From: a virus | Strand: one strand, 5' to 3' | Length of the DNA: 64,000 nucleotides | IMG/VR virus record: IMGVR_UViG_3300047558_000137 | Location: 246,859 to 310,858 of that record | Part shown: positions 37,552 to 54,830 of the stretch, one piece after another | Position numbering within the stretch: the stretch's first letter is position 1 | How the letters are laid out: each line of letters begins with the position of its first letter | The notes under the pieces: generated by a model | What the model was told of the DNA's origin: nothing | The model's database searches: none | The model's input: only the letters and a program-made list of their open reading frames with translations | Made by a program: the position numbers and the translations under genes

Positions 37552-39469
<1,918 letters not shown>

Positions 39470-39554
39470 CATAAACTCCTTTAAAATAAAAATGTGATTA
39501 TATAATAGAAAATGCGAGTCTGTCAACAACACAACCCGCAAAATTATTTATACT

Positions 39555-40325
39555 TTAGAAATACTGAACATTAGTTCTTGGAAAGAAACACTCGTTGTTT
39601 TGTAGAGGTTTCATTTTCATTGTTTCAAGTACAGTGTCTTTGCCTAGACCCATTGCTAGACTGTAAATGAAACTTTGATTGCATATTACCAGCTGGGCAC
39701 CGGCAATAACGTTAGCGAGTTCTAGGAACCCGTTAATAGGACACAAAGGTACATCAACACCAATGTCCCTAATAAACTCTTGACGCTCAGATTCAACACC
39801 AACAAATGTTCCATTGCTGGCTAGGTCAACGTCTTTAACAATATCTTTCCATGCAGCAATGCCTTCTGGATCATTGTATCTACTAGATCTATAAACTACA
39901 ATTGGCGCCACAGGATTGGGGTCTGCTTCTAACCAGGGCTCGTCATAGTCGGACATGTTAAAAGGAATATTGAATGCAAGATGATATCCCTGCACATAGT
40001 TTCCCTCAAAAGTTCTAAACTGTACGCTACGAAAGTGATCTAGATCTACATCAGGTTCGGCATCACCTTTGTGCCACATACTAGTTGTCTGTATGTAAGG
40101 CTGACGCTCTAGCAATGGCTTGAGTTTATAGTAGTCGCTTTCTTTAAAGCGGCCAACATGTGCAGGATCTACTCGTGCCCACTCGGGATTGCCACAGCTA
40201 TACTTGGCTACACATTCTTCAATGTTGTTAATAGCAACTTTATATTCGCCACCACCCATCTTTTTAACAATGGGAAGGCTGTAGATAAGATCGCCTAGTG
40301 TTCCAGAATGCTTAAACGTTTGCAT
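39555..40325 (-). CDS. putative glycosyltransferase (GT9-like C-terminal motif)
   Basis: VICNQSFIYSLAMGLGKDTV resembles the xNDSGxxHLAAALGxP motif of heptosyltransferase-family (GT9) enzymes. Confidence 0.4.
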   Translation of the reverse strand: MQTFKHSGTLGDLIYSLPIVKKMGGGEYKVAINNIEECVAKYSCGNPEWARVDPAHVGRFKESDYYKLKPLLERQPYIQTTSMWHKGDAEPDVDLDHFRSVQFRTFEGNYVQGYHLAFNIPFNMSDYDEPWLEADPNPVAPIVVYRSSRYNDPEGIAAWKDIVKDVDLASNGTFVGVESERQEFIRDIGVDVPLCPINGFLELANVIAGAQLVICNQSFIYSLAMGLGKDTVLETMKMKPLQNNECFFPRTNVQYF

Positions 40326-40692
40326 AGCTCTTTTCTTCTACGATAGTGCTGCCGCAGAGACTGTTAATTTCACGTTTGATACGGGCACGTTCGTCGTTCA
40401 TTTGATATACTTGTCTTGCGGCACGAATAAATTCACTGCTAAAATCCTGCTCTTGTTCGCAGCGGCGTTTGAAATCTTCAATCATCCAGAGATCAGCATT
40501 GACATAGCCCAAGTCTTTCTTTAACTGTGTAATGTCCGGAAGATCTAACTTAGACAAGATAGTTTTTAATTCATCTAATTCGCGTTCTACGTTTTTTAAT
40601 TTTGCAGAGTCACGAATATTAACCATTTTGATCTCTAAGATTGTAATCTTATCAATTAATTCGCCAATGCTGATTGGTGCTAGTACTATCAT
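40312..40692 (-). CDS. hypothetical coiled-coil protein
   Basis: 126-aa ORF. Confidence 0.4.
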   Translation of the reverse strand: MIVLAPISIGELIDKITILEIKMVNIRDSAKLKNVERELDELKTILSKLDLPDITQLKKDLGYVNADLWMIEDFKRRCEQEQDFSSEFIRAARQVYQMNDERARIKREINSLCGSTIVEEKSYANV

Positions 40693-41585
40693 AGTTGTTT
40701 TAATATAGCCGCTGCTATATCCTTTGAGTTAAAATTGCTTGAGCAAGGTGTGTTGCCCTTGCTACATACTAACTGTCTCACTGGACGAGCCTGTACGTCA
40801 TTGCACCCGCGACAATCTTCTAGTGTCTGTACCACTGTGGTATTGTATCCCAGCTGGTTGTTACGATAAGGCAAGATTACTTCGGGTCGCAGATGTGTTA
40901 GCAGTGCAACTATGTGCGTCGAACTGGCACTTGCAGCCCAATAAGGACCTGAATCAATGCCAACAAATGCTTTTGCACCGTCACATAGGACCTTTAACTG
41001 TTGATCATTGAACTTAGTACGTGCATCAACAAATAGTGGATGGTCTTCGATAAACAGGTCTGTTTCGCCGCCCACTGTTACAATCTTAAAGTCTGTGCGA
41101 GTTTCAAACAGTTGTGCAAAAACTTCAAACCAAATGTCGGCATTAATGTTTTTTGCAGTCCAATGCCAGTTACGCATATGAATAACAATATAACTATCTA
41201 GTTCATTCTGGTAAGCAAAGTTCAATACCTTAGTGGAATCTTCTTCTGTGGGGAATAATTCTGTTGATTGATCTAGACCTAGTTGCCCAAATGCACGATA
41301 GAAGTAGTTGTCTACATAGTGTTCTGTTGGATTAAGTTCATATGCATCGTCGAGATTAATATAAACATCATATCTATTGTTTACTGCTGGTATTTGGTCT
41401 ACAGGAAAGACGTTACGTATGTGCGGATTATTTCTATAAATGCCCGCAAAGTCTGTGGCAACGTCAATATTGGCATTGCTACCATAACGTGCCTTTAGTT
41501 CTCTAACTACCCCAGTGGTCATTACTACATCGCCAATTGCAGCACGGCGTTGTAATAGTATGTTAATTGACTTTTCTAATTTCAT
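40689..41585 (-). CDS. glycosyltransferase family 9-like (heptosyltransferase-like)
   Basis: FVGIDSGPYWAASASSTHIVALL matches GT9 GxDSGPxHLAAA motif; N-terminal ILLQRRAAIGDVVMTT matches the GT9 LxxxRxGDxVxxxP start. Confidence 0.6.
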   Translation of the reverse strand: MKLEKSINILLQRRAAIGDVVMTTGVVRELKARYGSNANIDVATDFAGIYRNNPHIRNVFPVDQIPAVNNRYDVYINLDDAYELNPTEHYVDNYFYRAFGQLGLDQSTELFPTEEDSTKVLNFAYQNELDSYIVIHMRNWHWTAKNINADIWFEVFAQLFETRTDFKIVTVGGETDLFIEDHPLFVDARTKFNDQQLKVLCDGAKAFVGIDSGPYWAASASSTHIVALLTHLRPEVILPYRNNQLGYNTTVVQTLEDCRGCNDVQARPVRQLVCSKGNTPCSSNFNSKDIAAAILKQL

Positions 41586-42790
41586 CGTTCTATTCTAATA
41601 TTAGGGAAGTAGGTCATGAAACGATCATTTAGATTATTTCTTGTTTTAAGTATCTTAGATTTAATTTCACGATAGAAATTCCATGCCAATGGTATAAACA
41701 ATACCTGTTCATCTTCTGCAAGACGTTCAAGATAGTTAATACTTACAACAGGAATGTCTGCGCCCGGGCATAAAGTTCCTTGTTTTAAAGGATTATCGTC
41801 TACAACTGCATCTAACTCAATACCACTTGCATTAATTACAGTCATGCCCTTAGCTGCCGCACCATATCCCACAATCTTATACCCTTGTGATCTATAGTCT
41901 GCTACCGTATCACGTAGATCCCCAATAAGAGTTGCAACATCCGATGCCCAACCTCTATAGGTATTGGGATCAGTTAATCCTGCAGCCGCTTCCATTGCTA
42001 GAATGTTTTCAACTCTTTGTGTATTCTTAGGCCGTCTAGCTAGAATAAAGATATAACTGGTGCCATGTATGGGTGTTTTAACTACATCAATTAAGTGTAG
42101 ACCTGCACGTTCTGCTAATGCCTGCATACTTGTGGCGTTGTAGAAACTAATGTGTTCGTGATAGATAGTATCAAACTCACTATTGACAACCATATCGGCT
42201 TGACTTGTGCTGATAAAAATCATTCCGGTATTGGTCATACGCTGTCTAGCGGCCAATAACCAATTTAAGGGATTTGGATTGTGTGCAAAACTGTTCTGTG
42301 CGGTAATAACATCAAACTGTGTATCAAAGCCTTGATCAGTTGGCCAGAAGTCGCATATAACTTGATGTCCTTTTGCTACTGTGTCTGCGTGTAGATTCTT
42401 TGCAGGATCCACACCATATGTTTTAAACCCTAAACGTTTAAATGCATCAAGTTGACTACCATCATTGCAGCCAATATCTAGTACTGTAGTGGGCCAATGA
42501 TCGAACTGTTCACGTACAAAACGTGCATACCAATCCATGTATTCAACATAAGTCCGACTTGTGCCACTAACATAGAGATAGTGGGTATAGATTAGTGCAG
42601 GATCTACTGCGTGTGTTAGCTGTAGATGATTGCAATCGTTGCAACGGTTAATGGCCAACGGATAACGTGGCTCAACTGCTGTGGTAGACCTGAAGTTATT
42701 GGCCAATGGCTGCTCACCTAGATCTAATGTAGGTGTTAAATCTGTGCTGCCACAGGCCACACAACTGGTAATAGGATCGCAATTATTCAT
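41582..42790 (-). CDS. SAM-dependent C-methyltransferase, TylCIII/NDP-hexose 3-C-methyltransferase-like, with N-terminal Zn ribbon
   Basis: N-terminal CVACGS...CNDCNH zinc-binding domain, class I SAM motif VLDIGCNDGSQL, length 402 aa as in sugar C-methyltransferases. Confidence 0.6.
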   Translation of the reverse strand: MNNCDPITSCVACGSTDLTPTLDLGEQPLANNFRSTTAVEPRYPLAINRCNDCNHLQLTHAVDPALIYTHYLYVSGTSRTYVEYMDWYARFVREQFDHWPTTVLDIGCNDGSQLDAFKRLGFKTYGVDPAKNLHADTVAKGHQVICDFWPTDQGFDTQFDVITAQNSFAHNPNPLNWLLAARQRMTNTGMIFISTSQADMVVNSEFDTIYHEHISFYNATSMQALAERAGLHLIDVVKTPIHGTSYIFILARRPKNTQRVENILAMEAAAGLTDPNTYRGWASDVATLIGDLRDTVADYRSQGYKIVGYGAAAKGMTVINASGIELDAVVDDNPLKQGTLCPGADIPVVSINYLERLAEDEQVLFIPLAWNFYREIKSKILKTRNNLNDRFMTYFPNIRIER

Positions 42791-43506
42791 TAGTTCTTAA
42801 TCTGTACGCCGTTTGGTGCAATATGTCCTTCGACCCCAAGCAAAGGTTCGTTGTGTACGTGTTCTTGTGGTAAGAATTTATACAATACATGTTCAATGTC
42901 TACATACCCGCCATTAGCAAGGCGTTCAGCAAAGAAGTTAAAGCTATCTAGGTAAACTTGTATAACTTCATCGGTCATTGTAGTAGGCCAAGACCATAGA
43001 CGTGCCATGTATTGCAACGGTACTTGTGTAACTTCAGGCGGGAATTGACTAGGTTGTGCAGGGCCAATAACAATCTTATCTTTAATATCATCACGTTCGT
43101 AAAGATCTAATTTAAAATCATCATTGAGCAGATATCTTCCTGATACTTTGTGTACACGGTCAAATCCATTTAACATGTTTTCTTGTTGTAAGATACCAAG
43201 TACGCGACTAAAGCACATGATCTCTGTACCGTTCTTAACTACGTCCCAGTTGTCATTGTCGTATAGAGCTTGTACATCTTCATCTGTACTGCAATCAATG
43301 AACACATGGCATACTTCTTTAAGTTGATTGGCTTGTAAATCCTTAATAGGTGTGCCGCAGACTTCCATAACAACAATCAACGCATCGGGCACACGTTGTT
43401 TAATTGTGGCGATAGTGTTTAGTGTTTGGTCTAAACGCTCACGTGGACTGTATACTCCAAATTTACTGTTAATTGCGCTGGTTACGATAAATGCATGTTT
43501 AGTCAT
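42790..43506 (-). CDS. hypothetical protein in sugar island
   Basis: 238-aa ORF coupled to flanking sugar genes. Confidence 0.45.
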   Translation of the reverse strand: MTKHAFIVTSAINSKFGVYSPRERLDQTLNTIATIKQRVPDALIVVMEVCGTPIKDLQANQLKEVCHVFIDCSTDEDVQALYDNDNWDVVKNGTEIMCFSRVLGILQQENMLNGFDRVHKVSGRYLLNDDFKLDLYERDDIKDKIVIGPAQPSQFPPEVTQVPLQYMARLWSWPTTMTDEVIQVYLDSFNFFAERLANGGYVDIEHVLYKFLPQEHVHNEPLLGVEGHIAPNGVQIKN

Positions 43507-43519
43507 AATATATTCTACT

Positions 43520-44704
43520 TTAATAATCTCTGTTAGTCAATTCAATTTTAACTCGTTTACGATACGTGGCCAATGCACTACCAATAACTTGGTGCATGTC
43601 GTAGTACATGTATTCGCCTAAGCGGCCGCCGAAGATCACGTTGGGCTCTTTTTCTGTTAAACTACGGTATTGTGCAAACATTTCCATATCCTCTGGTGTC
43701 TTAACAGGATAATAAGGAACGTCATCTTGTGTTGCAGTGCGGCTAAACTCTCTACCAATTACCGTTTTTCCATCAGCTACACGACGTTCAGGATGAAAGT
43801 GTCGATGTTCTACTTCACGTGTCCACTTTACATCCGTGTCGGGATAATTTAATACAGCGACACCCTGGTAGTCGTTGGTATTTTCTGTACGGTATTCAAA
43901 ATCTAGTGTGCGCCAATTTAGTTGGCCATAGCAATAATCATAGAAAGCATCAATTGGGCCAGTGTAGACCACCAACTTTTCACGTGCCAGATGTTTTACA
44001 TCTTCCCAACAAGTGTTTAAGTGTACTGTAACGTTGTCATGTGCCAACATCTTTTCAAATATTGGTGTGTAACCGTCAACTGGTATGCCTTGATATCTAT
44101 TGTTGTTAGGATAGTAGTCTGTTCGGTAGTCTGTATAAACAGGTAAACGTTTAGCAACACTAGCAGGTAGTTCTTTAGGATCAGTTTCCCACTGCTTTTG
44201 TGTGTATCCCTGCACAAACGCATGATACAATTTAGAACCTAGCAAACTTAGTGCTTGCTCTTCAAAGTTCTTAGGATCATCATAGTGTACTTTTTGTTCT
44301 TCTAACCAACGAGCTGCGTCTGCAGGGTTAAACTCATTACCAGTAAACTTGTTTATTGTATCCAAGTTAATAGGCATGGGGTAAACTACACCTTGATGAC
44401 TTGTTTTGCAGATATGTCGGTAGTTGTTAAACTCAGTAAATTGATTTACATAGTCCCAGATTTCTTTATTATCTGTATGAAATATATGAGAACCATAACG
44501 ATGTACATTTATACCAGTCTCCGGATCAAACTCAGTATAACAGTTGCCACCAATATGATTGCGACTATCAATCACAGCAACCTGAAAGCCATCTCGGCTA
44601 GCCTGTTCAGCAACTACGCTACCAAAGAAGCCGGCACCAACTACAACTAAATCAACGTTTTTAAACATTACTTGCTTAACCAGCGTGTGTTTTCTAGGGT
44701 CCAC
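43520..44704 (-). CDS. glf: UDP-galactopyranose mutase
   Basis: N-terminal FAD fold VVGAGFFGSVVAEQ, then NHIGGNCYTE...YGSHIFHTDNKEIWDYVN...QGYTQKQW...YQGIPVDGYT...IFGGRLGEYMYYDMHQVIGSAL, colinear with E. coli Glf. Confidence 0.9.
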   Translation of the reverse strand: MDPRKHTLVKQVMFKNVDLVVVGAGFFGSVVAEQASRDGFQVAVIDSRNHIGGNCYTEFDPETGINVHRYGSHIFHTDNKEIWDYVNQFTEFNNYRHICKTSHQGVVYPMPINLDTINKFTGNEFNPADAARWLEEQKVHYDDPKNFEEQALSLLGSKLYHAFVQGYTQKQWETDPKELPASVAKRLPVYTDYRTDYYPNNNRYQGIPVDGYTPIFEKMLAHDNVTVHLNTCWEDVKHLAREKLVVYTGPIDAFYDYCYGQLNWRTLDFEYRTENTNDYQGVAVLNYPDTDVKWTREVEHRHFHPERRVADGKTVIGREFSRTATQDDVPYYPVKTPEDMEMFAQYRSLTEKEPNVIFGGRLGEYMYYDMHQVIGSALATYRKRVKIELTNRDY

Positions 44705-45708
44705 TTAGTCATTTCAGCAATGCGTTCGCTAAGTTTAATACGTGGTTCCCAACCTAGATCTTTAAGTAGGCCACCGTCTAGTGCGTAACGCAGGTCATGT
44801 CCCGGACGACTACTATGAAAATCTACCATTTCGTAGTTTAACTCTCGACCTTGCGCTTCCGCAATCCACTTAGCAAGTGTTAGATTATCAACCTCTTCTG
44901 TGCCTACTAGGTTGAACTTAGGGCAGTGTGCGTGTCCGTAATCGCCTGTGTGTTTATAGTCCTTAGGCAAGTTTTGCAAAATAAACATTAGACCTTCAGC
45001 TACATCCCTTGCATGTATGTACATTCGTGTACCAGCTTCTGTTTTCTCTGGGTTAGAGTGAATAAAAACTTTCTCACCATCACGGGCACGTTGGATGCAC
45101 ATAGGAATAAACTTCTCGGGATGCTGACGTTCGCCAAACACGTTCATAGTGTGTGTAACTACAATAGGCATCTTATAAGTGTTTTCGTACGCCACACAAA
45201 ATTCTTCGGCTGCTGCCTTGCTCGCGCTATACGGGTTGGTGCTGTTGTACCGATCATACTCTTTATAAGATACCCCGGGTGGAGCAACCCCAAAAATTTC
45301 GTCTGTTGAAAAGTAAACGAAACGTTCGAGGTTAGGTAAATTTTTTCTAGCATAATCTAACATGTTAACAGTACCAACGGTATTGTCTAACACAAACTCC
45401 ATAGGGTAAGTAATTGAACGATCTACATGCGATGATGCAGCTAGATGCAAAACAATGTCTACTGGACCAATATCTTTAACGATCATTTCGTTTAGTTCTG
45501 CCTTGATATCATGGAATATGATACGCATACGCTTGGCTATTACTGCAGGGTCATGTTCCTTTAACATGTCGTGTAATCGATTTAGATTACCACTAATGTC
45601 AAGTCTATCAAGACTAACGATATTCCAGTCTGTACTAAGTAGGATTTTATCTATAACGTGGTGGGCAATAAAACCTGCGCCACCAGTTATCAAAACTGTT
45701 TTGCTCAT
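44668..45708 (-). CDS. NDP-sugar 4,6-dehydratase (RmlB-like) / NAD-dependent epimerase-dehydratase family
   Basis: Rossmann TGGAGFIAHHV, catalytic YSASKAAAE (YxxxK), PEKFIPMCIQRARDGEKVFI matches RmlB PEKLIP...GKPLPIYG block. Confidence 0.75.
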   Translation of the reverse strand: MSKTVLITGGAGFIAHHVIDKILLSTDWNIVSLDRLDISGNLNRLHDMLKEHDPAVIAKRMRIIFHDIKAELNEMIVKDIGPVDIVLHLAASSHVDRSITYPMEFVLDNTVGTVNMLDYARKNLPNLERFVYFSTDEIFGVAPPGVSYKEYDRYNSTNPYSASKAAAEEFCVAYENTYKMPIVVTHTMNVFGERQHPEKFIPMCIQRARDGEKVFIHSNPEKTEAGTRMYIHARDVAEGLMFILQNLPKDYKHTGDYGHAHCPKFNLVGTEEVDNLTLAKWIAEAQGRELNYEMVDFHSSRPGHDLRYALDGGLLKDLGWEPRIKLSERIAEMTKWTLENTRWLSK

Positions 45709-45734
45709 TGAAACTCCGAGATTATTGAATAATA

Positions 45735-46586
45735 CTATTTATTATACGGGTATGGCGGTAAGAAATCAATTATCTTCTCACCAGAATTGGCCAATATAAA
45801 GTCTGTGTACTGCCGACAGCTGGCAGGAAAGTAGTTGTCTAGGTCAACTATCTTATATGTAGCATCAGCTGAACGATTCCATTCTTTGCCTTCGGCAATA
45901 CTTTTATCTAAATCAATCTGTGCCAGGAACTCAGGTGTATTGACTTCTGTGTGACTAAAACTCTGTGCTTTATCACGTAGGTAGTCGTTGTCGCCCATGT
46001 AACCAAAATGCCATCCAGCATGTTCAATGACTTCGCAACCTTGGTTCTTGTGTTGATATTCGGCACCAAAGAAGTTAAAACGGAAATTACGCAATTGGTT
46101 AGGTGTTATTTCTTTAAACACACTGCCCCTGCCGGCCATTGCCCAAACATCATAACGTGCTGGCTCAAAGCGCATATAGTTAAATTTAAAGTTGCTTAAT
46201 GTCATACGCATGGCAAAGATTATTTGATCTGATTGGCGTATGTATTCAACTGCTGCCGGACGAGGTATTTCATCAACATCAGATACGATCATAATGTCAT
46301 CATCTTCTGCATCAGTTAGGCAATGCAATATTGCATTACGTTGTGCTTCTTCGTTTACCCATGGATTTGGGTCTCCGGGTAAGTTGACAGGCAAATACCT
46401 AATCTTATCTGCATAAGGTTTAAATCTATCATAATGTTGTGGAAATAACGGAGTGCGAGCACGATTGGTAAATGTACTAGTGCCTTCAACAATGACAAAC
46501 ACATCCACTGTGTTGTATAATTCTTTAAGGCGTATTTCTAATAGATCGAGTTCATTGTAAAATGTAAAGCAGTCAAATATACGCAT
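45735..46586 (-). CDS. glycosyltransferase family 17-like (beta-1,4-N-acetylglucosaminyltransferase-like)
   Basis: N-terminus MRIFDCFTFYNELDLLEIRLKELYNTVDVFVIVEG matches the conserved GT17 start IxDCFxFxNELDxLExRL. Confidence 0.55.
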   Translation of the reverse strand: MRIFDCFTFYNELDLLEIRLKELYNTVDVFVIVEGTSTFTNRARTPLFPQHYDRFKPYADKIRYLPVNLPGDPNPWVNEEAQRNAILHCLTDAEDDDIMIVSDVDEIPRPAAVEYIRQSDQIIFAMRMTLSNFKFNYMRFEPARYDVWAMAGRGSVFKEITPNQLRNFRFNFFGAEYQHKNQGCEVIEHAGWHFGYMGDNDYLRDKAQSFSHTEVNTPEFLAQIDLDKSIAEGKEWNRSADATYKIVDLDNYFPASCRQYTDFILANSGEKIIDFLPPYPYNK

Positions 46587-46593
46587 ATAAATA
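46586..46593 (+). promoter_or_regulatory. T4-late-promoter-like TATAAATA box
   Basis: Exact TATAAATA 30 nt upstream of the ATG of the plus-strand methyltransferase gene. Confidence 0.45.
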
Positions 46594-46623
46594 TTTATTA
46601 ATCAATATATTGTAACAAAAACA

Positions 46624-47208
46624 ATGCAACAATTCAATACTCTAGATGGTATCCAGGTTGATGAGGCACACGTGGCCTTAATCAATGGTATCGTCAAAAG
46701 CCAAAAACCTCAACGCATACTAGAATTAGGTTTAGGATCTGGTACTACTACTGATGCAATACTAGAAGCCCTACAGTTTAATCAGCAACCGTTTGAGTTT
46801 ACTCTAGTAGACTTATGGTTAGAACGTGCCTGGGGCGGTGACCCGGATACTATGCGATCGGGCACATGCCCTCCTGAAGCTGTAGAAAAGTACAGCCAAT
46901 ATATCAACATTGTTACCAGTGACGAACGCGAGTATGTATTCAATTGTGGCAAAACATTTGATTTTATCATGAGTGATGCTGATCACCATAATACACAAAA
47001 ATGGTTTGAATACGTCTACGCAGAAGTACTAGAAGCCGGCGGCACGTTAATCTATCATGACGTAACTGACCGTAGCTTTACAAACCTAAGAGAGATATAC
47101 GAAAAATGTAAACTGTTTAATTTACGCTTTACATTGTTCAACAAGAATAGCCGCAGTGACGAACGTTGTGACCGTGGCCTGTTAGTAATCTATAAACCCG
47201 AAGAATAA
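46624..47208 (+). CDS. class I SAM-dependent methyltransferase (O-methyltransferase-like)
   Basis: RILELGLGSGTTTD motif I; 194 aa. Confidence 0.6.
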   Translation: MQQFNTLDGIQVDEAHVALINGIVKSQKPQRILELGLGSGTTTDAILEALQFNQQPFEFTLVDLWLERAWGGDPDTMRSGTCPPEAVEKYSQYINIVTSDEREYVFNCGKTFDFIMSDADHHNTQKWFEYVYAEVLEAGGTLIYHDVTDRSFTNLREIYEKCKLFNLRFTLFNKNSRSDERCDRGLLVIYKPEE

Positions 47209-47217
47209 GGAATCAAT

Positions 47218-47913
47218 ATGTACGCTGTAGTAAGCATGAGCACCCATAGTATCGCCGACCTGGCAGATCAAACAGATGGACTAAAGAAGGAATACTGTGA
47301 CCATAATGGTTATGAATTCTTTGCTATCAAAGACGAAGACTTTAAAGTATTTACTAAACCATATAGTAGCTTTATGGACTGGAACAAGGCGTTCTACGTA
47401 AACGATTTGCTAAAGTCACGCCCAGACATCGAATGGGTATTGATTAGCGAAGCAGATGCTACTATCACTAACATGACTACACGCATGGAAGATAAAGTTG
47501 ATAACAATTATCACGTTATTATTCCAGTAGACGTAAACAACTTAAACGGCGGTAACTGGTTACTTCGTAATAGCGAAGAAGGTCGTGCTTACATTCAAAT
47601 GATGGTTGATGTTGTTGAGGACTACAGAGAAGATCAAAGTCCTGATGGTAAACTAAAAGACAAATGGGGACTACAACAGGTAATGATTGATACTATTGGT
47701 CAATACGAAGCGATTGTTAAGATTGTTCCACAAAAGCACATGAACAGCTACGAACCAGAAATCTATGACTACTTAGATGTTCGCACAGACATCCTAGGAA
47801 CATCTGGCGTATGGGAAAAGGGCGATTGGATTATTCACTGGCCCGGTATTAGGCACAATGTTCGACTTGATAGAGTTAAACGATTAGAAGACGAACAAAT
47901 GATTGTTCGATAG
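47218..47913 (+). CDS. hypothetical protein (possible nucleotide-sugar transferase)
   Basis: 231-aa ORF with good AAGGA Shine-Dalgarno; co-transcribed with methyltransferase. Confidence 0.45.
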   Translation: MYAVVSMSTHSIADLADQTDGLKKEYCDHNGYEFFAIKDEDFKVFTKPYSSFMDWNKAFYVNDLLKSRPDIEWVLISEADATITNMTTRMEDKVDNNYHVIIPVDVNNLNGGNWLLRNSEEGRAYIQMMVDVVEDYREDQSPDGKLKDKWGLQQVMIDTIGQYEAIVKIVPQKHMNSYEPEIYDYLDVRTDILGTSGVWEKGDWIIHWPGIRHNVRLDRVKRLEDEQMIVR

Positions 47914-47923
47914 TCACAAAAAA

Positions 47924-47947
47924 GCCCGCCTAAGCGGGCTATTTTTT
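47924..47947 (+). terminator. rho-independent terminator (GCCCGC-CTAA-GCGGGC followed by ATTTTTT)
   Basis: Closes the two-gene plus-strand cassette. Confidence 0.7.
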
Positions 47948-47948
47948 A

Positions 47949-48110
47949 ATCTTGATCTTCGTTAGTTACTTTTTCACCTAGATACTGTTTAACACTACGC
48001 ATAAGTTTGCGTTCAGTGTCGTAAACATATTCACGTGAGTCATCTTCAGTGTTAACGACTAAGATGTAGCCATTGGCTGCTTTTCTAATTTCTAAACTTT
48101 CAAACATAGT
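47949..48110 (-). CDS. small hypothetical protein (53 aa; below track cutoff)
   Basis: MFESLEIRKAANGYILVVNTEDDSREYVYDTERKLMRSVKQYLGEKVTNEDQD read from the minus strand. Confidence 0.25.
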
Positions 48111-48394
48111 GTTTCCTTGGTTGGTTGAATAATAGGTTTGAGCACATTACATTTGCTTTCCGACCGTGGACCACATTGATAAGAATAATGACTTCCTATC
48201 TAACCACCCCTGGGTGATATTTTTCATGGTCTCGAGACTCGTTCGCGGTTCTTAAATCAATTGTACCCTCGGAAGCATCCGATATAGTCTTTCCAGGACA
48301 ACGGGGCCGGTTTGCCTTGCGGCTACACGCTAATAGAACTACCACTGGTATCAAATAGTCGCCACACTATGTGCTCAAACTTATTACATGCTAA

Positions 48395-49018
48395 TTATAA
48401 CGCAGTTGTTGTTTGTAGGTCTAGTAGATATTTGTCCAATGATTCGTTTGGCCAAACATTTTTATAAAATATTAATTTTACCAATCTTTCAGACCTAGAG
48501 AAAAACAATAAACTAGGTATCCATAATACCAAATTTGGGTCTTCATTGATCAGATGGTAACCACGTTCTTTTACAAAACCTGGGTCTGCTTTTATTGCAT
48601 CCTTAATTGGATTATCAATCGACGAATCAGCAAAGTGTACTAGTTTGCCATTTTCAAACAGTGCTTGAAAGTTCCAATATGATGCTAAAAAATTAACATC
48701 ACGATTTGTGATATTTCTTAATTGCTTCAGGTGGGCTATAAATGTCTTGTCACTGTTATATAACAACGGTATTGTTATACCTTCTCTTGCATGGTACGAA
48801 TGTAGCAATGTTTTACCGGTGATACAGTTAATAAAGTAAACTTTATCAATGTGAAGATCGTTTACTTTACTATGTATGTATTGCACATACAGATCGGAAA
48901 TATTATCGTATGGGCGAGTTAGTGAACAAATCAATACTCGCCCATTTGCGGCTATATCCTGAAATTTTATTTGCTTAATATTACCATTGTCGAGATATAA
49001 AAATTCTATATCTTCCAT
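48395..49018 (-). CDS. hypothetical protein
   Basis: 207-aa ORF. Confidence 0.45.
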   Translation of the reverse strand: MEDIEFLYLDNGNIKQIKFQDIAANGRVLICSLTRPYDNISDLYVQYIHSKVNDLHIDKVYFINCITGKTLLHSYHAREGITIPLLYNSDKTFIAHLKQLRNITNRDVNFLASYWNFQALFENGKLVHFADSSIDNPIKDAIKADPGFVKERGYHLINEDPNLVLWIPSLLFFSRSERLVKLIFYKNVWPNESLDKYLLDLQTTTAL

Positions 49019-49028
49019 TGGATCCTAA

Positions 49029-49985
49029 TTATGCTTTTAAAATCCCATTAATTAAACCAGGGGAAAATACATCTTCGTACTTAGTGTACAAAGGCTCAAC
49101 TATATCTCTCATTTTTGCAATTTCGGAATCGCTAAATTTGTAATAGCTAACCCCCAACTCATCATGGCGAGCTTGGTTAACTGCGTAGTCCTCTGCTTCT
49201 GCAACACTTTCTTCGCGTTCACGAACCGCAGCAACACGGGCAGCTTGTCTTACAAATTCTTGATCTTCAGAATCTAAACTATTCCAGAAATCTTTAGAAA
49301 TTAAGATGCTTGTTAAGTACATGCTATGTTTAGTATCAACAATGTGCTTTTGAACAGCGGTATTAGCTTCGTATTCGTAACGTGGTAATGTAGTTTCTAC
49401 TGTGTAACCATTCTTTTGTAATACTTCGCTCTTGGCATCATAGTTACGTGCGCTGATAGCAAGTGGTTCGCATCCAAAAATCTTAGCTGTATCTACCATT
49501 ACTGGGTTTGGTGCAGTAACTAGTTTAATTCCCTTTAAGTCCTCAAAGGAATTAATCTTTTTATCTGACGCTAGGCATCTATACCCGCCACTATATGTAA
49601 ATGCTAGACCATGAACAGGAGTGTTTTTTTGTAGACTATCTAATAGTCCTCGACCAATTTCTCCGTCTAGAACACGAGTTGCATGATCGTGGTCTTTAAA
49701 CAAATATGGCATTTCTAATGCAAAAAAGTCCGGTGCATTCCATACACCAATAAGGTTAGTTTGCATCTGGCTCATTTCTACGTCATTATTTTGTATCAAT
49801 GACAATGGCTCGTGTTTTACGCCATTTTTAAATTTATCTGAATATTCTTCAAGTGTGTACACTTCCACATTGATTCTGTCTCCGGTTAAGCGGGCAATTT
49901 CTTGAGAAAATGCTTTAGCAGTACGGACAAACAAGTGGATAGGTTCGTGATATAATACCCAACGTATTGTGTGATTCTTTTTCAT
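49029..49985 (-). CDS. TRAP-transporter DctP-like solute-binding protein homolog (no signal peptide)
   Basis: VHGLAFTYSGGYRCLASDKKINSFEDLKGIKLVTAPNPVMVDTAKIFGCEPLAIS colinear with DctP GLAFWDNGFK...LKMRIQSS...ALGA.P region; N-terminus lacks secretion signal. Confidence 0.6.
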   Translation of the reverse strand: MKKNHTIRWVLYHEPIHLFVRTAKAFSQEIARLTGDRINVEVYTLEEYSDKFKNGVKHEPLSLIQNNDVEMSQMQTNLIGVWNAPDFFALEMPYLFKDHDHATRVLDGEIGRGLLDSLQKNTPVHGLAFTYSGGYRCLASDKKINSFEDLKGIKLVTAPNPVMVDTAKIFGCEPLAISARNYDAKSEVLQKNGYTVETTLPRYEYEANTAVQKHIVDTKHSMYLTSILISKDFWNSLDSEDQEFVRQAARVAAVREREESVAEAEDYAVNQARHDELGVSYYKFSDSEIAKMRDIVEPLYTKYEDVFSPGLINGILKA

Positions 49986-50025
49986 GTGTGATTTCCTCTG
50001 AATAAGAGCTAAGTCTATAGTGTAT

Positions 50026-50463
50026 TTATATTTTAATTAGATATTCGTAATTAACAGAAGACTCGTTTTCGCGCATAATTATTGCCCCATTTTTTAAATG
50101 GAATCTGCGGGCCATTTCAGTTTTGGGACTTAGAGTAACAAATCTAGTAATAGTTGGGTAGCGGTTGCGTATTTCGTTGACTGTTTCTCTGAGTAGCTCT
50201 ACCCCTGCGCCCGGGGCATAACTCCATATAGTGTAAAAGATTGCTGTAGTTGGTTGCTCAGCATCGCGAGAAAGATCATCAACATCTGCTGGTACAAAGT
50301 CATGCAGACTAACACAAACGATTGCTCTAGGTTTTTCATCGACTAACGCACTAATAAACCTTTTACCTTGTACACGAAACTCTGCAGGAATTTCAGGGCG
50401 AACGGGGTCGTCCTTTATGTAGGAAAGTATTGGGCTTTGTGGGTCAGTGATAATCGATAGCAT
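50026..50463 (-). CDS. hypothetical protein (possible GNAT-fold)
   Basis: 145-aa ORF; weak acetyltransferase-like YTIWSYAPGAGVELL. Confidence 0.3.
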   Translation of the reverse strand: MLSIITDPQSPILSYIKDDPVRPEIPAEFRVQGKRFISALVDEKPRAIVCVSLHDFVPADVDDLSRDAEQPTTAIFYTIWSYAPGAGVELLRETVNEIRNRYPTITRFVTLSPKTEMARRFHLKNGAIIMRENESSVNYEYLIKI

Positions 50464-51822: not shown

Positions 51823-51896
51823 TGGAGCGGGATAGCGGAATCGAACCGCTGACTTGAACTTGGAAGGATCTCGTTTTACCATTAAACTAATCCCGC
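51823..51896 (-). tRNA. tRNA, probably Gly(TCC); anticodon stem imperfect
   Basis: Cloverleaf with T-arm AGCGG-TTCGATT-CCGCT, acceptor GCGGGAT/ATCCCGC, encoded CCA; loop CTTCCAA but only 3/5 stem pairs. Confidence 0.6.
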
Positions 51897-51903
51897 ATAA
51901 ACT

Positions 51904-51978
51904 TGGTACCTTGTGACAGTTTCGAACTGCCGACCCTCTCGGTGTAAACGAGACGCTCTACCCCTGAGCTAACAAGGC
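51904..51978 (-). tRNA. tRNA-Val(TAC)
   Basis: GCCTTGT-TA-GCTCAGGGGTAGAGC-G-TCTCG-TTTACAC-CGAGA...TTCGAAA; CCA encoded. Confidence 0.8.
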
Positions 51979-52081
51979 AACTATTTTTTGTACTCTTGCA
52001 AGTACTGATTTCTTTTTGAAATCTTTTTATATCTACTTCCTTTGCCTTTACTACCAAAGTTTTCTGTTTGACTATGGCAAA

Positions 52082-52157
<76 letters not shown>

Positions 52158-52161
52158 CATA

Positions 52162-52238
52162 TTGGTTGCAGAGGCTGGATTCGAACCAGCGGCCTCCAGG
52201 TTATGAGCCTAGCGGGATGACCAACTTCCCTACCCTGC
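52162..52238 (-). tRNA. tRNA-Met(CAT), initiator-like (C1 opposite A72)
   Basis: CGCAGGG...CTAGG-CTCATAA-CCTGG...GCTGGTTCGAATCCAGC-CTCTGCA-A-CCA; unpaired 1:72 is the bacterial initiator hallmark. Confidence 0.75.
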
Positions 52239-52246
52239 GTCAATAT

Positions 52247-52882
52247 TTATACCAGCTGCTCTGCTACTAACAGAGAAACTGTATCAGCATCCAATTCGAT
52301 TTCGGTGCGAACATTAAGTTCCAACACCCGATCATTGATGCTTTGTTTTTCTTTTTTCAGGCTACGCATTTCTGCCTTGTAACCTTCAATTTGTTCTGCT
52401 GTCAACACGCCAGTGTCAACTGTGTCGCTGTACCCATACATACGGGTCTTTGAATCGCTGTCGCGAAGTTTCCGCAACTTGCCAGACAACACTTTTTCCG
52501 ATTCAACAACTTTGCCTTCGGTTAGGCTTTTTAGTTGGCCAATACGCTTATCAACGTAAGCGGCTTCTGTGAGCAAGTCTGCTACACCACTTGCGGCATT
52601 AGCACGACCAACTTGGGCACGAATTGCGTACAAGGCCTTTGTCAGCTTGTTACGGCGTGCATCGTTAGCAACAACGCCTTCACGAGCACAAGCCAACTCT
52701 TTAGCTGGATCCTGGAACTCGTTTAGTGAAAACGATGTAGTCACTTCAATGGTTTTTGTGTGTTCCTGGATTGTGTTTTGTAATGCGTTTGCTTTGCGAA
52801 GTGTAATCTTCATAATCGAGTCCCTTTCTGATTGAATTATAGCAGTGAGCGTATGGCAAGTCAATTGCCGGACAATGTGCAA
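52247..52882 (-). CDS. hypothetical coiled-coil protein (start possibly at internal MKITLRK)
   Basis: 211-aa ORF directly downstream of tRNA-Met. Confidence 0.45.
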   Translation of the reverse strand: MHIVRQLTCHTLTAIIQSERDSIMKITLRKANALQNTIQEHTKTIEVTTSFSLNEFQDPAKELACAREGVVANDARRNKLTKALYAIRAQVGRANAASGVADLLTEAAYVDKRIGQLKSLTEGKVVESEKVLSGKLRKLRDSDSKTRMYGYSDTVDTGVLTAEQIEGYKAEMRSLKKEKQSINDRVLELNVRTEIELDADTVSLLVAEQLV

Positions 52883-53108
52883 AATACATTAGCGGTTAGA
52901 CATTTTTAGGCGCCTAAATTACTAAAGCAAAATACAAGAGACAGAGGATACCAATATTCGTGAGTGTCAACAAACAAGGCAATTACGCCGGGGTCTCACA
53001 TCACTGGATCACGATTGTTAATGCAATATTTCCGTTCAAGGGAATATTACGGTGCAATCTCTCATCTCCATACACATCACCGTCCTGTTTTAATAAACAG
53101 GCAAAATC

Positions 53109-53291
53109 TTAACAATGTTCTTTAAACAACGCCTTGCGCTTTTCTTGGCCCAATGTGTTATCTAAAACATCTTTGCATCTATTCATCATACCAAAACATA
53201 AAATCAATAACTCATTCTGGTCATCGCACATCATAATCTGCTGTTCGATGGGTTGCATAAGTTCTTTTAATTTTTGATCAATAGGATGCAT
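53109..53291 (-). CDS. small hypothetical protein (track ORF 53109-53366 runs into tRNA-Cys; shortened to internal Met)
   Basis: MHPIDQKLKELMQPIEQQIMMCDDQNELLILCFGMMNRCKDVLDNTLGQEKRKALFKEHC. Confidence 0.3.
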   Translation of the reverse strand: MHPIDQKLKELMQPIEQQIMMCDDQNELLILCFGMMNRCKDVLDNTLGQEKRKALFKEHC

Positions 53292-53296
53292 AAACT

Positions 53297-53372
53297 TGGA
53301 GCACGGTGTAGGAGTTGAACCTACCTCATACCGGGTTTGCAATCCAGCGCATAACCGCTCTGCCAACCGTGC
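53297..53372 (-). tRNA. tRNA-Cys(GCA)
   Basis: GCACGGT...D-loop AGCGGTTA identical to E. coli tRNA-Cys, loop TTGCAAA, T-arm GTAGG-TTCAACT-CCTAC, CCA encoded. Confidence 0.75.
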
Positions 53373-53504
53373 ATAATTCTTTGTTTAGTGGGCTACCCCT
53401 CATGTTCTCTTACTCTTGGGTAACGTGACCAGATCGCATAGCACCGAAGAACAATCCGTACTATACTAGGCTCCCTCGCTAAAGGCATCACTAAACAAAA
53501 ACTT

Positions 53505-53596
53505 ATATGTAAACACACTACCACGGCGTTATACTGCTGTATCGCAAGCAATACTACCATGTCTACCCATTGTGCATGTAATGTGTTTGCATATAA
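53505..53596 (-). repeat. copy A of about 90-nt conserved hairpin element (arms ATGTAAACACACT / AATGTGTTTGCATAT)
   Basis: Second copy at 56129-56207 abuts the 3' end of tRNA-Lys; arms are inverted repeats of each other, inner region partly conserved (AATACTACC / AGTATTGCTACC). Confidence 0.55.
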
Positions 53597-53597
53597 G

Positions 53598-53670
53598 TGG
53601 AGGACTGAGATTACATCTCTCCCAATAGCACCTCGAGCATTATACTGCACCTTGCGAGCACAGCTTCTCT
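53598..53670 (-). pseudogene. degenerate tRNA-like remnant (3' end CTCAGTCCTCCA resembles tRNA-Lys 3' end) attached to repeat copy A
   Basis: No canonical T-loop; same junction with the hairpin element as the intact tRNA-Lys copy. Confidence 0.25.
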
Positions 53671-53928
53671 CGACATCCACGGTAACCCTTGCGGTATTAC
53701 TGTCTGCTATCAGCATCGCCGTTTTTAACGTCAGGCAGTAGACGTGTCGCTATCAGCTACTCTGTACCTTATTTCCCGTTGACCTTTAGAGCCATTCACA
53801 GTCGCTAAACTGTTACGAAACTTCTAGTACAAACCAATTTCACCTTGCGAGTTACGTTGGACTTGATTCACTTGCGTGTCAAGCATTAGATGCTTTTCAC
53901 TGATAACCGTGTCAGACTTTGCGTTTTT

Positions 53929-54810: not shown

Positions 54811-54830
54811 TTAGATATAAGTATTATACT

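Follow-up and report, generated by a model that had tools for sequence, protein, structure and literature searches.

Why a lytic-looking jumbo phage should maintain a dense set of sugar genes, and on what acceptor their product would be placed, are the questions raised by the locus at 39555-47913 of the 64-kb stretch of phage DNA analysed here (the window; genome size approximately 360-375 kb). The GroEL of this freshwater jumbo phage is gammaproteobacterium-like, and Atu_ph07, Phosso and PA5oct are distant relatives of its clade. The initial annotation proposed that the phage is able to build a decorated oligosaccharide, and this proposal is supported by family thresholds, catalytic motifs, two structure models and clade-wide conservation. 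It named the virion, phage DNA and host LPS or capsule as possible acceptors; the evidence ranks these candidate acceptors, without deciding between them, in the order virion, envelope and DNA.

Gene content and organization of the locus

The locus comprises ten genes (coordinates include the stop codon), which overlap or lie no more than 26 nt apart according to their ORF coordinates, in agreement with the clustering and compactness noted earlier. Eight genes constitute an operon on the minus strand, and the other two are paired on the plus strand, divergent from it; all ORFs are intact and translationally coupled. They encode five soluble glycosyltransferases, an RmlB-type 4,6-dehydratase, a TylC3/TcaB9-type sugar 3-C-methyltransferase, a UDP-galactopyranose mutase, a class-I methyltransferase and a DUF6165 protein. 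A hydrophobicity scan detected no transmembrane segments in any of the ten proteins, and family profile searches found no flippase, polymerase, ABC or other transporter, ligase or priming transferase within the island. The locus is adjoined by groES/groEL, a DctP-type binding protein and tRNA genes, and not by capsid or tail-tube genes. The phage also encodes a tailspike with a pectate-lyase fold, pointing to a polysaccharide as receptor, and ribonucleotide reductase genes are located directly past the left edge of the window.

All of the nucleotide-sugar enzymes that had been named (Glf, an RmlB-like dehydratase and a TylCIII-like C-methyltransferase) were recovered by profile and structure matches. 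UDP-galactopyranose mutase (Glf, g07; 43520-44668, minus strand) exceeds the TIGR00031 cut-off (344.3 versus 303.75 bits), matches PF03275 (E = 1.5e-74) and contains the FAD motif GAGFFG; its start is likely the ATG at 44668, whose overlap with the stop codon of g08 reads TAATG, while the GTG at 44704, as listed for this gene, is an upstream extension. The 346-aa NDP-hexose 4,6-dehydratase, an RmlB-like SDR (g08; 44668-45708, minus strand), matches PF16363 (167 bits) and PF01370 (160 bits), and its best ten PDB matches are all dTDP-glucose 4,6-dehydratases, although its TIGR01181 score (225 bits) is below the equivalog cut-off of 365; it carries the motifs STDE (residues 134-137) and YSASK (160-164). 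The 402-aa product of g05 (41582-42790, minus strand) combines Methyltransf_13 (62.6 bits), Methyltransf_23 (72.2) and Methyltransf_14 (107.2) domains with a CxxC...CxxC arrangement at residues 10, 13, 50 and 53. Its top PDB match is the D-mycarose 3-C-methyltransferase 4rv9 (E = 1e-62), followed by TcaB9 (6e-53) and 5t6b, deposited as 'Sugar 3-C-methyl transferase' (1e-49), and on these grounds it is predicted to be a SAM-dependent NDP-4-keto-6-deoxyhexose 3-C-methyltransferase of the TylC3/TcaB9 type.

At least three glycosyltransferases had been expected, and five were counted, including the previously unannotated g06. The GT17-like assignment was firmly upheld for the 283-aa product of g09 (45735-46586, minus strand), the first gene of the minus-strand operon, which matches positions 74-300 of PF04724 (114.7 bits versus a family cut-off of 26). 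Residues D103, D105 and E106 are invariant across 14 sequences, distant ones among them, and no hydrophobic segment was found in this protein, the membrane anchor of eukaryotic GT17 enzymes being missing. A GT17 domain in Azospirillum sp. TSH100 is accompanied by an FkbM methyltransferase, glycosyltransferases that contain TPRs and a giant Ig-like protein. Of the two GT9 genes initially annotated, the 298-aa g04 (40689-41585, minus strand) passes the PF01075 cut-off narrowly (23.9 versus 22 bits), with fragmentary matches to heptosyltransferases I and III and RfaQ that are all far under their cut-offs. Its family profile matches WaaF (E = 2.5e-4) and 3tov over a region that takes in both the DSG motif and the GD motif of the N-terminus. 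An extra Cys4 insertion near the C-terminus (C258, C261, C274 and C281, all invariant) is missing from the four E. coli proteins compared (WaaC, WaaF, WaaQ and WaaU). The second, the 256-aa GT-B protein g02 (39555-40325, minus strand), is GT9-like (heptosyltransferase) by predicted fold only; it keeps the N-terminal G-D motif, but the donor motif D[ST]G is replaced, and it could be non-catalytic. Profile searches returned no family match for either g02 or the 238-aa g06 (42790-43506, minus strand), whose GT-A fold is unrecognisable from sequence and is also seen in glycosyltransferases of giant viruses and cyanophages. The two structure models are confident and clearly transferase-like. All glycosyltransferases of the locus are acidic, with net charges of -8 to -15.

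The plus-strand pair, previously described as an O-methyltransferase cassette with two further methyltransferases, contains only one, the 194-aa class-I SAM methyltransferase g10 (46624-47208; Methyltransf_24, PF13578, 35.6 bits versus a cut-off of 26.3), which also has a weak O-methyltransferase match and is probably a sugar O-methyltransferase. The other gene, g11 (47218-47913, 231 aa), encodes a GT34-like (GMA12/MNN10, DUF273) GT-A glycosyltransferase (PF05637, 57.6 bits versus 23) with an invariant D80 inside an (E/G)-x-D motif. The pair does have its own promoter-like box, TATAAATA (46586-46593, plus strand), 31 nt upstream of g10. All seven copies of this box in the window are correctly oriented and precede the start of a listed ORF or tRNA array by no more than 70 nt (P ~4e-10); for the copy preceding GroES, the probable ATG start is a little farther downstream, at ~76 nt. 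A bidirectional intrinsic terminator (AGCCCGCCTAAGCGGGCT, 47923-47940, with T-runs on each strand) ends the pair and stops minus-strand read-through entering the operon. The remaining gene, g03 (40312-40692, minus strand), encodes a 126-aa DUF6165 protein (PF19662, 58.2 bits versus 27).

Conservation among related phages

The locus is a conserved core with variable accessory genes rather than a recently acquired island; in each of at least 16 related viral contigs it adjoins groES-groEL. Neither is it self-contained, since it encodes no nucleotidyltransferase and no 4-ketoreductase. The order GT34, GT17, 4,6-dehydratase, GT-A, C-methyltransferase, GT9, GT9-fold, groES and groEL is found in 16 viral contigs, and hundreds of metagenomic homologues of the locus ORFs were detected. 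The GT34-like gene is part of the core (found in L001-L024) and mostly divergent from the GT17 gene, with the two on the same strand in L009 and L016. The dehydratase is the most conserved gene of the locus (82-89 % identity in most relatives, 68-71 % in two); transferases share only 45-69 % identity between relatives, whereas the values for the dehydratase and GroEL are mostly 82-95 %. Glf is accessory, being present in only two of the 16 relatives (L001 and L014), as is g10, which has homologues only in L004, L006 and L007, while L010 contains a paralogous Methyltransf_24 gene that also matches TylF. Other variable tailoring genes encode FkbM, TylF-like and Methyltransf_24 methyltransferases, extra SDRs, a RuBisCO-like protein, a radical SAM protein and a split pair resembling transketolase. 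The DUF6165 gene, with more than 6000 metagenomic homologues, is found in some relatives, flanked by the C-methyltransferase and GT9 genes (L001, L002, L005, L011 and L013).

A proposed pathway and its possible acceptors

The reading tentatively favoured here is that a branched and methylated deoxy-sugar oligosaccharide is assembled in the cytoplasm on a virion protein, with every chemical step deduced from family membership. The host would contribute NDP-glucose, UDP-galactopyranose, SAM and probably ADP-heptose. The dehydratase would convert NDP-glucose, by oxidation and dehydration, to NDP-4-keto-6-deoxyglucose, whose C3 would be methylated via the 4-keto group by g05, giving a branched 3-C-methyl-6-deoxyhexose precursor. 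A 4-ketoreductase would then be required; since the island encodes none, and RmlD-like SDRs are present in relatives, it would be supplied from elsewhere in the phage genome or by the host, and the end sugar is therefore uncertain. Glf would produce UDP-galactofuranose, the transferases g04 (GT9), g02 (GT9-fold), g06 (GT-A), g09 (GT17) and g11 (GT34-like) would join the sugars into a short hetero-oligosaccharide, and g10 would add an O-methyl group. In the least certain step, the acceptor may be a structural protein of the phage that receives its glycan in the cytoplasm, either ahead of assembly or while assembly proceeds, by analogy with chloroviruses, mimiviruses and mycobacteriophages. If so, swaps of tailoring genes between close relatives would diversify the exposed virion glycan.

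A cytoplasmic acceptor that is neither lipid nor DNA is favoured by the lack of transmembrane segments and of a flippase, polymerase, ABC transporter or priming transferase, by the acidity of the transferases and by the finding of no base-modifying enzyme among the ~60 scanned ORFs of the window and the three genes past its left edge. Leads toward a protein acceptor are the GT17 context in Azospirillum sp. TSH100, the recurrence of the g06 fold in giant-virus and cyanophage glycosyltransferases, and the invariant Cys4 insertion of g04, which occupies the place of the iron finger of TibC, a protein-heptosylating enzyme (PMC4358343). On the other hand, sequence similarity between this insertion and TibC is undetectable, the island is away from capsid and tail-tube genes, unlike in mycobacteriophages, the acceptor and glycoprotein are hypothetical, g02 could be non-catalytic and the end sugar is uncertain.

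Host-envelope remodelling is a less probable explanation. Here the soluble transferases would use lipid A-core or an undecaprenyl-linked primer as substrate on the cytoplasmic side of the inner membrane, and the product would be exported via host MsbA/Lpt or an ABC transporter; a surface changed in this way would keep out superinfecting phages or prevent progeny from being adsorbed onto debris. O-antigens are typified by Glf, 6-deoxyhexoses and methyl caps; the hypervariable gene content resembles that of O-antigen loci, and the receptor suggested by the tailspike is a polysaccharide. Such remodelling is also the classical reading for comparable cyanophage and jumbo-phage clusters (PMC7824862, section 3.4.10; PMC12801897). 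The two GT9-type proteins resemble WaaC and WaaF, and as GT9 enzymes are classically LPS inner-core enzymes yet soluble, the absence of membrane proteins is compatible with a lipid-linked acceptor. The missing membrane and export components (priming transferase, flippase, polymerase, ligase and transporter) nevertheless speak against a pathway for LPS, O-antigen or capsule that is complete in itself, although host export machinery could serve one lacking its own exporter. Moreover, heptosyltransferases of the phage would do what host enzymes already do, the 64-kb window shows neither an integrase nor any other sign of lysogeny, and in a lytic infection new LPS would presumably be too slow in replacing the receptors already present; in the literature examined, the function lacks experimental demonstration for any lytic phage cluster.

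DNA hypermodification, in which the transferases would place a complex glycan on a hydroxylated pyrimidine (5hmC, 5hmU or 5hoC) and thereby evade restriction, appears improbable. Known systems, including the T4 alpha/beta-GT, the arabinosyl-5hoC of RB69 and DLP3 and the proposed RL38J1 Glf pathway (PMC13326640; 10.1101/2023.12.21.572611), likewise combine phage transferases with nucleotide-sugar enzymes, and Glf belongs to the galactofuranosyl-5hoC pathway proposed for the Glf-encoding Rhizobium T4-like phage RL38J1 and relatives (PMC13326640). A tblastn search detected Glf in ~90 phage records, among them phages of Rhizobium, Agrobacterium and Aeromonas; the glycans that phage DNA can carry extend to di- and tri-saccharides and to bulky sugars (heptose, Kdo) (10.1101/2023.12.21.572611), and the nearby ribonucleotide reductase genes would suit such a pathway. 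However, Glf is dispensable in the clade whereas the transferases are core, and no base-modifying enzyme (ThyS-like enzyme, 5mYOX or C5-methyltransferase) turned up in the ~60 scanned ORFs of the window, which covers 64 kb of the genome, or in the three genes seen past its left edge, nor did a base hydroxylase or hydroxymethylase near the island. Pathways of this kind usually cluster (10.1101/2023.12.21.572611). Known DNA glycosyltransferases have positively charged DNA grooves (10.1101/2023.12.21.572611), whereas the GT9, GT17 and GT34-like enzymes differ from the families reported on DNA and are all acidic; the lack of base-modifying enzymes in the scanned ORFs together with five acidic transferases weakens this explanation, and five transferases with C- and O-methylation surpass the DNA glycans described in the literature examined. 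A lack of coherent sugar function, with the genes being decaying acquisitions or encoding generic folds (SDR, methyltransferase, Rossmann), is highly improbable. The weak sequence calls (g04 as GT9 by 2 bits, g02 and g06 unmatched, the SDR under the RmlB equivalog cut-off) and the missing ketoreductase and nucleotidyltransferase would fit it, but Glf is above its equivalog cut-off, the TDE/YxxxK, Zn-Cys4, DxD and GD/DSG motifs are conserved, both structure models are transferase-like, and the intact, coupled ORFs, the order kept across contigs and the abundant metagenomic homologues already contradict it.

Comparison with known glycosylation systems

The virion-protein reading has parallels in viruses of eukaryotes. 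In chlorovirus PBCV-1 (A064R and partners) and in mimivirus clusters, methylated 6-deoxy-sugar glycans are built on virion proteins in the cytoplasm. Giant viruses possess autonomous capsid and fibril glycosylation machinery (PMC4691112). As in the phage clade, their clade-specific clusters encode their own soluble transferases, nucleotide-sugar 4,6-dehydratases and FkbM-type methyltransferases; their hosts, however, are eukaryotic, orthology is no deeper than fold and the glycoprotein is hypothetical here. We know of no report of a C-methyl branched sugar or GT9-type enzyme in giant-virus glycosylation. Mycobacteriophages use their own cytoplasmic transferases, sometimes with a methyltransferase, to glycosylate subunits of the capsid and the tail tube (Freeman et al. 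2023, as relayed in PMC12619734 and PMC12801897); as far as these accounts describe them, the genes are few (2-4), lie beside structural genes and come without nucleotide-sugar tailoring enzymes, whereas the present island is far from recognised capsid genes and carries its own deoxysugar branch. The BAHT protein heptosyltransferases (TibC, AAH; PMC4358343) resemble g04 in the position of the C-lobe Cys4 insertion, but g04 lacks their N-terminal beta-barrel.

Bacterial branched-chain deoxysugar pathways (RmlB, then TylC3, TcaB9 or KijD1) share the succession of a 4,6-dehydratase and a SAM-dependent 3-C-methyltransferase, the latter with three domains and a Zn-Cys4 site. They also include 2,3-dehydratases, aminotransferases and ketoreductases and feed antibiotic aglycones, whereas the phage locus has neither an aglycone pathway nor a reductase. 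Among cultured phages, cyanophages are the sole source of homologues of the GT17 and C-methyltransferase proteins (~25 % identity). The 'LPS / capsular polysaccharide' clusters of T4-like cyanophages and other jumbo phages, such as P-SSM2, S-SKS1 and S-SCSM2R (PMC7824862, PMC12801897), likewise combine 1-4 NAD-dependent epimerase/dehydratases with several glycosyltransferases and methyltransferases in large lytic phages, are polymorphic among related phages and have a putative acceptor. The present island differs from them in the lack of a sugar kinase or nucleotidyltransferase and in host lineage, and is distinguished by its two GT9-type proteins, GT17, GT34-like transferase, TylC3-type C-methyltransferase and Glf, and by its fixed place beside groES-groEL.

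Gene content and organization of the glycan locus

Positions 39555-47913 of the window are occupied by ten ORFs and little besides. They encode five transferases (g02, g04, g06, g09 and g11), three nucleotide-sugar enzymes (g05, g07 and g08), one probable O-methyltransferase (g10, a Methyltransf_24 protein in Pfam) and one protein of no assigned role (g03, DUF6165 in Pfam). The gene list of the initial annotation holds in all entries except one, as the second plus-strand gene (g11) encodes a transferase and not a methyltransferase. The GC content of the island (0.39-0.41) is close to that of the remainder of the window. The minus-strand arm comprises eight ORFs, running from 46586 down to 39555, with junctions that are translationally coupled or short: g08/g07 reads TAATG, four others overlap by 1-14 nt, and two are spaced by 13 and 26 nt. 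The plus-strand pair (46624-47208 and 47218-47913) is separated from this arm by a 37-bp spacer holding the promoter-like box TATAAATA at 46586-46593, and is followed by a GC-rich hairpin with T-runs on both strands (47923-47940), which terminates the pair and shields the minus-strand operon from upstream transcription. Thus, the pair does possess its own box and terminator, as had been proposed.

Further copies of TATAAATA are found at 23807-23814 on the plus strand and at 10073-10080, 39545-39552, 50023-50030, 52244-52251 and 60305-60312 on the minus strand. Its frequency in the window is not above chance (7 copies versus 5.8 expected), but every copy, in the correct orientation, has the start of a listed ORF or of the tRNA array within 70 nt downstream (P ~4e-10); among the starts marked in this way are those of groES, the tRNA array and the DctP gene. 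We regard the box as a likely promoter element specific to the phage, with the same sequence as the T4 late -10 box. Its use as a 'late' mark for the whole island was rejected, since it precedes only g10-g11 and groES and gives no clue to when the main operon is expressed. Beyond the hairpin, about 285 nt (48110-48394) between a small minus-strand ORF and the gene at 48395-49018 contain no ORF of at least 60 aa; an Rfam search of the ORF-poor region 47800-48500 returned no match other than sub-threshold, terminator-like ones.

The proposed presence of one GT17 and two GT9 transferases was compared with the Pfam family thresholds. The GT17 assignment of g09 is clear (PF04724, 114.7 bits versus a threshold of 26), while GT9 (PF01075, LPS heptosyltransferases) is passed narrowly by g04 (23.9 bits versus a gathering threshold of 22) and not matched by g02. 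The NCBIfam equivalogs for heptosyltransferase I, heptosyltransferase III and RfaQ score well under their cut-offs (e.g. 39 bits versus 170). GT9 enzymes classically transfer heptose from ADP-heptose to the Kdo or heptose of the LPS core, and are marked by an N-terminal G-D motif supplying the catalytic Asp and a donor-binding D-[ST]-G...H motif in the C-lobe. Both motifs are present in g04 (GD at residues 18-19 and IDSGP at 210-214, aligned to WaaF and 3tov), whose family profile matches WaaF and 3tov across the N-terminal GD and the DSG...H donor motif. The g02 protein (256 aa) keeps the GD motif, with D12 invariant, and has NQSF where DSG would be; hhalign detected no link between g04 and g02. 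For two ORFs without a family match, models built on aligned metagenomic homologues reached pLDDT >91, and that of g02 adopts a GT9-type GT-B fold matching WaaC (13.9), then 3tov, WaaF and TibC. In the test of GT9 family membership, a GT-B fold nearest WaaC and WaaF was thus found.

The DxD-type metal site of g09 (D103, D105 and E106) is invariant across 14 phage sequences. This protein lacks the membrane anchor of the eukaryotic enzymes, as the match begins at profile position 74 and no hydrophobic segment is present. Matches of g11 to PF05637 (GT34, GMA12/MNN10; 57.6 bits versus 23, in two stretches) and, more weakly, to DUF273, together with an invariant D80 within an (E/G)-x-D motif, support GT34 membership at the level of a 'GT34-like GT-A' enzyme. 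PDB sequence searches with g04, g09, g10 and g11 yielded no match.

The question of whether the sugar enzymes are specific or belong to generic folds was largely settled in favour of the former. The g07 protein passes the UDP-galactopyranose mutase (Glf) equivalog TIGR00031 (344.3 bits, cut-off 303.75) and carries the FAD-binding GxGxxG motif as GAGFFG at residues 23-28, numbered from the GTG start. The g05 protein matches PF08421, PF13489 and PF08484, each above threshold, and thereby shares the architecture of the NDP-hexose 3-C-methyltransferases TylC3, TcaB9 and KijD1, namely a Zn-binding N-domain, a class-I SAM domain and a C-methyltransferase C-domain. Its zinc site CxxC...CxxC is kept (Cys10, 13, 50 and 53), and its PDB matches include the D-mycarose 3-C-methyltransferase 4rv9 (1e-62), TcaB9 (6e-53) and the 'Sugar 3-C-methyl transferase' 5t6b (1e-49). 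The g08 protein is an extended SDR that falls below the cut-off of the RmlB equivalog TIGR01181 (225.3 versus 365.1 bits) and is therefore named an RmlB-like NDP-hexose 4,6-dehydratase, without assigned nucleotide specificity. Its best-matching family in Pfam and NCBIfam is dTDP-glucose 4,6-dehydratase, and its top ten PDB matches are all 4,6-dehydratases, including one from a giant virus (6vlo). The catalytic Thr-Asp-Glu and Tyr-x3-Lys motifs, which distinguish dehydratases from epimerases, are kept as STDE (134-137) and YSASK (160-164).

From these observed family identities, we infer the chemistry of the following steps. NDP-glucose would be converted by g08 to NDP-4-keto-6-deoxyglucose, which g05 would methylate, presumably at C3. 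A 4-ketoreductase would be needed next, and its absence from the island of this genome is a gap in the model. UDP-galactofuranose would be supplied by g07, while the five soluble transferases would build an oligosaccharide that g10 may then methylate.

Conservation and variability among related phages

An IMG/VR scan with the GT17 protein returned 29 loci, 16 of which belong to the same clade and share one gene order: GT34-like / GT17 - 4,6-dehydratase - GT-A - C-methyltransferase - (DUF6165) - GT9 - (methyltransferase) - GT9-fold - groES - groEL. Identity among these relatives is 82-89 % for the dehydratase in most (68-71 % in two), 82-95 % for GroEL and 45-69 % for the transferases. Glf occurs in only two relatives, each time with an RmlD-like SDR, and Methyltransf_24 in three. 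The GT34 arm is lengthened in most relatives by FkbM methyltransferases, additional SDRs and a split transketolase-like pair. In two relatives, GT17 is separated from the dehydratase by inserted genes for a nucleotidyltransferase, a cupin, a TylF-like methyltransferase and a RuBisCO-like protein; two others have a radical SAM/SPASM gene. More distant contigs retain GT17, the GT34-like gene and an SDR, with a g02-like gene also present in some. Homologues of g02, g03 and g06 are found on hundreds of metagenomic contigs, some of ~360-375 kb. A g03 identical to that of the window occurs on a 374-kb contig; the other exact copies of window proteins in the records searched were on contigs of 2-16 kb. 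With the island as query, megablast gave no match among 50,697 phage records, and no cultured phage is close.

The split transketolase-like pair consists of a TPP-binding protein of 206 aa and a Transket_pyr protein of 160 aa (5879-6975 of the related locus L002), with equivalents in L003-L008, L012, L013, L015 and L020, and possibly in L017, L018 and L024, where only ORFs of similar size are present. The pair is absent from the window; it lies in the arm divergent from GT17, with FkbM methyltransferases and SDRs alongside, and points to a TPP-dependent, two-carbon step of branched-sugar synthesis in most of the relatives. The RuBisCO large-chain-like protein (409 aa; PF00016, 127.8 bits) is encoded within the glycan island at 11832-13058 of locus L010, with an equivalent in L011; the adjoining nucleotidyltransferase, cupin and TylF-like methyltransferase genes are an unusual context for such a protein.

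In an unrelated 642-kb uncultured phage (LR756502.1), an 867-aa protein encoded at 13639-16242 fuses an RmlD-like SDR to a sugar C-methyltransferase, and its gene adjoins those for GT17, GT11, a DegT aminotransferase and UDP-glucose dehydrogenase. The same pairing of GT17 with a C-methyltransferase here underlies an independent glycan cluster in a huge phage. Bacterial GT17 homologues show at most 41 % identity, the best being in Azospirillum, and a cellular source locus was rejected, as none of 80 bacterial and archaeal GT17 loci reproduces the module and the Pantoea homologue is an isolated gene. On plasmid p1 of Azospirillum sp. TSH100 (NZ_CP039640.1, 292243-294162), a 639-aa protein ends in the GT17 domain. 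Around it are encoded GT4 and GT2 enzymes, TPR-containing glycosyltransferases, an FkbM methyltransferase and a giant Ig-like protein, a neighbourhood that looks like one for protein glycosylation.

The conserved order, the variable accessory genes and the lack of a bacterial source module indicate that the locus is an old, conserved core with O-antigen-like accessory variability, and the view of it as a recently acquired 'island' was abandoned. Such variation of accessory genes among relatives, known also from O-antigen loci, suggests diversifying selection on the product.

Ever since the first cyanophage genomes, large phages have been known to carry glycan gene clusters, none of which, to our knowledge, has an experimentally assigned acceptor. 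As such clusters occur in cyanophages, jumbo phages and giant viruses, the kind of locus is not new. Not described in the open literature searchable here are the family composition of the locus (two GT9-type transferases, GT17, a GT34-like transferase, a TylC3-type C-methyltransferase and optional Glf), its fixed site beside groES-groEL and its spread in an abundant clade of uncultured freshwater jumbo phages. Neither the 'Moraphages' paper (PMC12619734) nor the boreal jumbophage survey (PMC13573597) describes the locus, and the searched literature yielded no paper on a phage- or virus-encoded sugar pathway with a C-methyltransferase.

Predicted acceptor of the oligosaccharide

None of the ten island proteins has a membrane segment (highest 19-residue hydropathy ≤1.68), and all are acidic. 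As no priming phosphoglycosyltransferase, flippase, polymerase or ABC transporter was found among the ten genes or in the flanks, this is not a self-contained O-antigen or capsule locus of the Wzx/Wzy or ABC-transporter type. It also differs from the serotype-converting modules of temperate phages (GtrA/GtrB/GtrX, O-acetylases), which rely on a membrane flippase, a bactoprenol glucosyltransferase and a polytopic type-specific transferase: the island encodes neither Gtr-type nor membrane proteins, and no integrase was found among the scanned window ORFs. Modification of the host envelope is nonetheless conceivable, as the classical target of GT9 enzymes, themselves soluble, is the LPS core, and similar phage clusters have been read as surface remodelling for superinfection exclusion (PMC7824862); we consider it rather unlikely. 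DNA is an improbable acceptor. Glf, which belongs to a proposed phage DNA pathway (PMC13326640), is the sole gene tying the island to that pathway, and the clade does not depend on it. Transferases of DNA hypermodification tend to lie in clusters with base-modifying enzymes and present basic DNA grooves (10.1101/2023.12.21.572611). A scan of the island, of ~60 window ORFs and of three genes past the left edge, covering 64 kb plus ~4 kb of a ~360-375 kb genome, found neither a thymidylate-synthase-like enzyme nor a 5mYOX or C5-methyltransferase.

The lack of membrane, export and Gtr-type genes in the island and of base-modifying genes in the DNA scanned, the acidic proteins and the dispensability of Glf favour a cytoplasmic protein acceptor. 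Virion glycosylation in chloroviruses, mimiviruses and mycobacteriophages is carried out by soluble virus-encoded transferases without lipid carriers, a feature, necessary but not sufficient, shared by the island with its five predicted soluble transferases and no carrier or export genes. By this analogy, a virion protein may be the acceptor, at somewhat less than an even chance, although the island does not lie beside capsid genes; the small remaining probability falls on acceptors of other kinds. A further lead toward a protein acceptor is an invariant Cys-x2-Cys-x12-Cys-x6-Cys insertion in the C-lobe of g04 (residues 258-281), absent from E. coli WaaC, WaaF, WaaQ and WaaU and positioned like the iron finger that the protein heptosyltransferase TibC requires for substrate recognition (PMC4358343). 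The likeness is positional, as a search with the C-terminal Cys4 region did not retrieve TibC and no sequence similarity supports homology.

A fuller proposal is put forward tentatively, with doubt outweighing belief: the freshwater clade may autonomously coat its virions with a heavily methylated oligosaccharide of branched deoxysugar and galactofuranose, diversified between close relatives by swaps of tailoring genes, the chain being started on protein by a GT9-type enzyme bearing a putative metal finger. If true, bacteriophages would have an equivalent of the giant-virus glycan machinery, and viruses their first pathway to a branched-chain (3-C-methyl) sugar. Should the virions be glycosylated, Gram-negative jumbo phages would join giant viruses and actinophages in autonomous viral glycosylation, with a bearing on particle stability, adsorption and recognition in lakes. 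The system is solid and well delimited and offers a clear experimental handle. The locus is a good test case, being compact and conserved across a widespread freshwater jumbo-phage clade, and its distinctive proposed chemistry (a C-methyl branched 6-deoxyhexose, galactofuranose and O-methyl groups) would give mass signatures easily sought on virion proteins, DNA or LPS.

Phage context and neighbouring genes

The window is phage DNA. Besides 27 tRNA genes it contains genes for GroEL and GroES, for a primase, for a DnaB-type and a UvsW-like helicase, and for two tail proteins, a collagen-like fibre and a tailspike with a pectate-lyase fold. Compared with its counterparts in the jumbo phages Phosso, Atu_ph07 and PA5oct, the helicase shows 48-53 % identity. 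The groES-groEL pair (37552-39541) directly follows the glycan operon in all related contigs long enough to show it, and the phage GroEL has ~70 % identity to GroEL of gammaproteobacteria. The TTG listed as the groES start probably lies too far upstream, because the products called on other contigs have 96-116 aa.

The tail fibre (18800-23338, 1512 aa) contains long GIQ/GPQ collagen-like repeats, an Asn-x-Thr-rich tract near residues 1290-1350 and a C-terminal domain that, by eye only, looks C1q/TNF-like. It was rejected as a target of BclA-type O-glycosylation, as the repeats are GIQ and GPQ and not G-x-T. The tailspike (1245-2582) combines the pectate-lyase fold with an Mtd_N domain. Other genes encode NifU-like and Fe-S assembly proteins (6124-6814), a pirin (14737-15411), an SPFH/Band 7 protein (31577-32419), a DctP-type TRAP solute-binding protein (49029-49985) and a malonyl-CoA-decarboxylase-like fragment (50026-50463). 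Just past the left edge of the window, the contig L116 encodes at 10461-14681 the large and small subunits of ribonucleotide reductase, with a 268-aa ORF without a recorded Pfam match between them. The 27 tRNA genes (51823-63191) are all on the minus strand with small ORFs in between, and the region also holds a 128-aa RF-1-domain ORF with ORFs of similar size nearby, HNH-like ORFs, a dual-specificity phosphatase gene (56455-57078) and a radical SAM gene (58534-59706).
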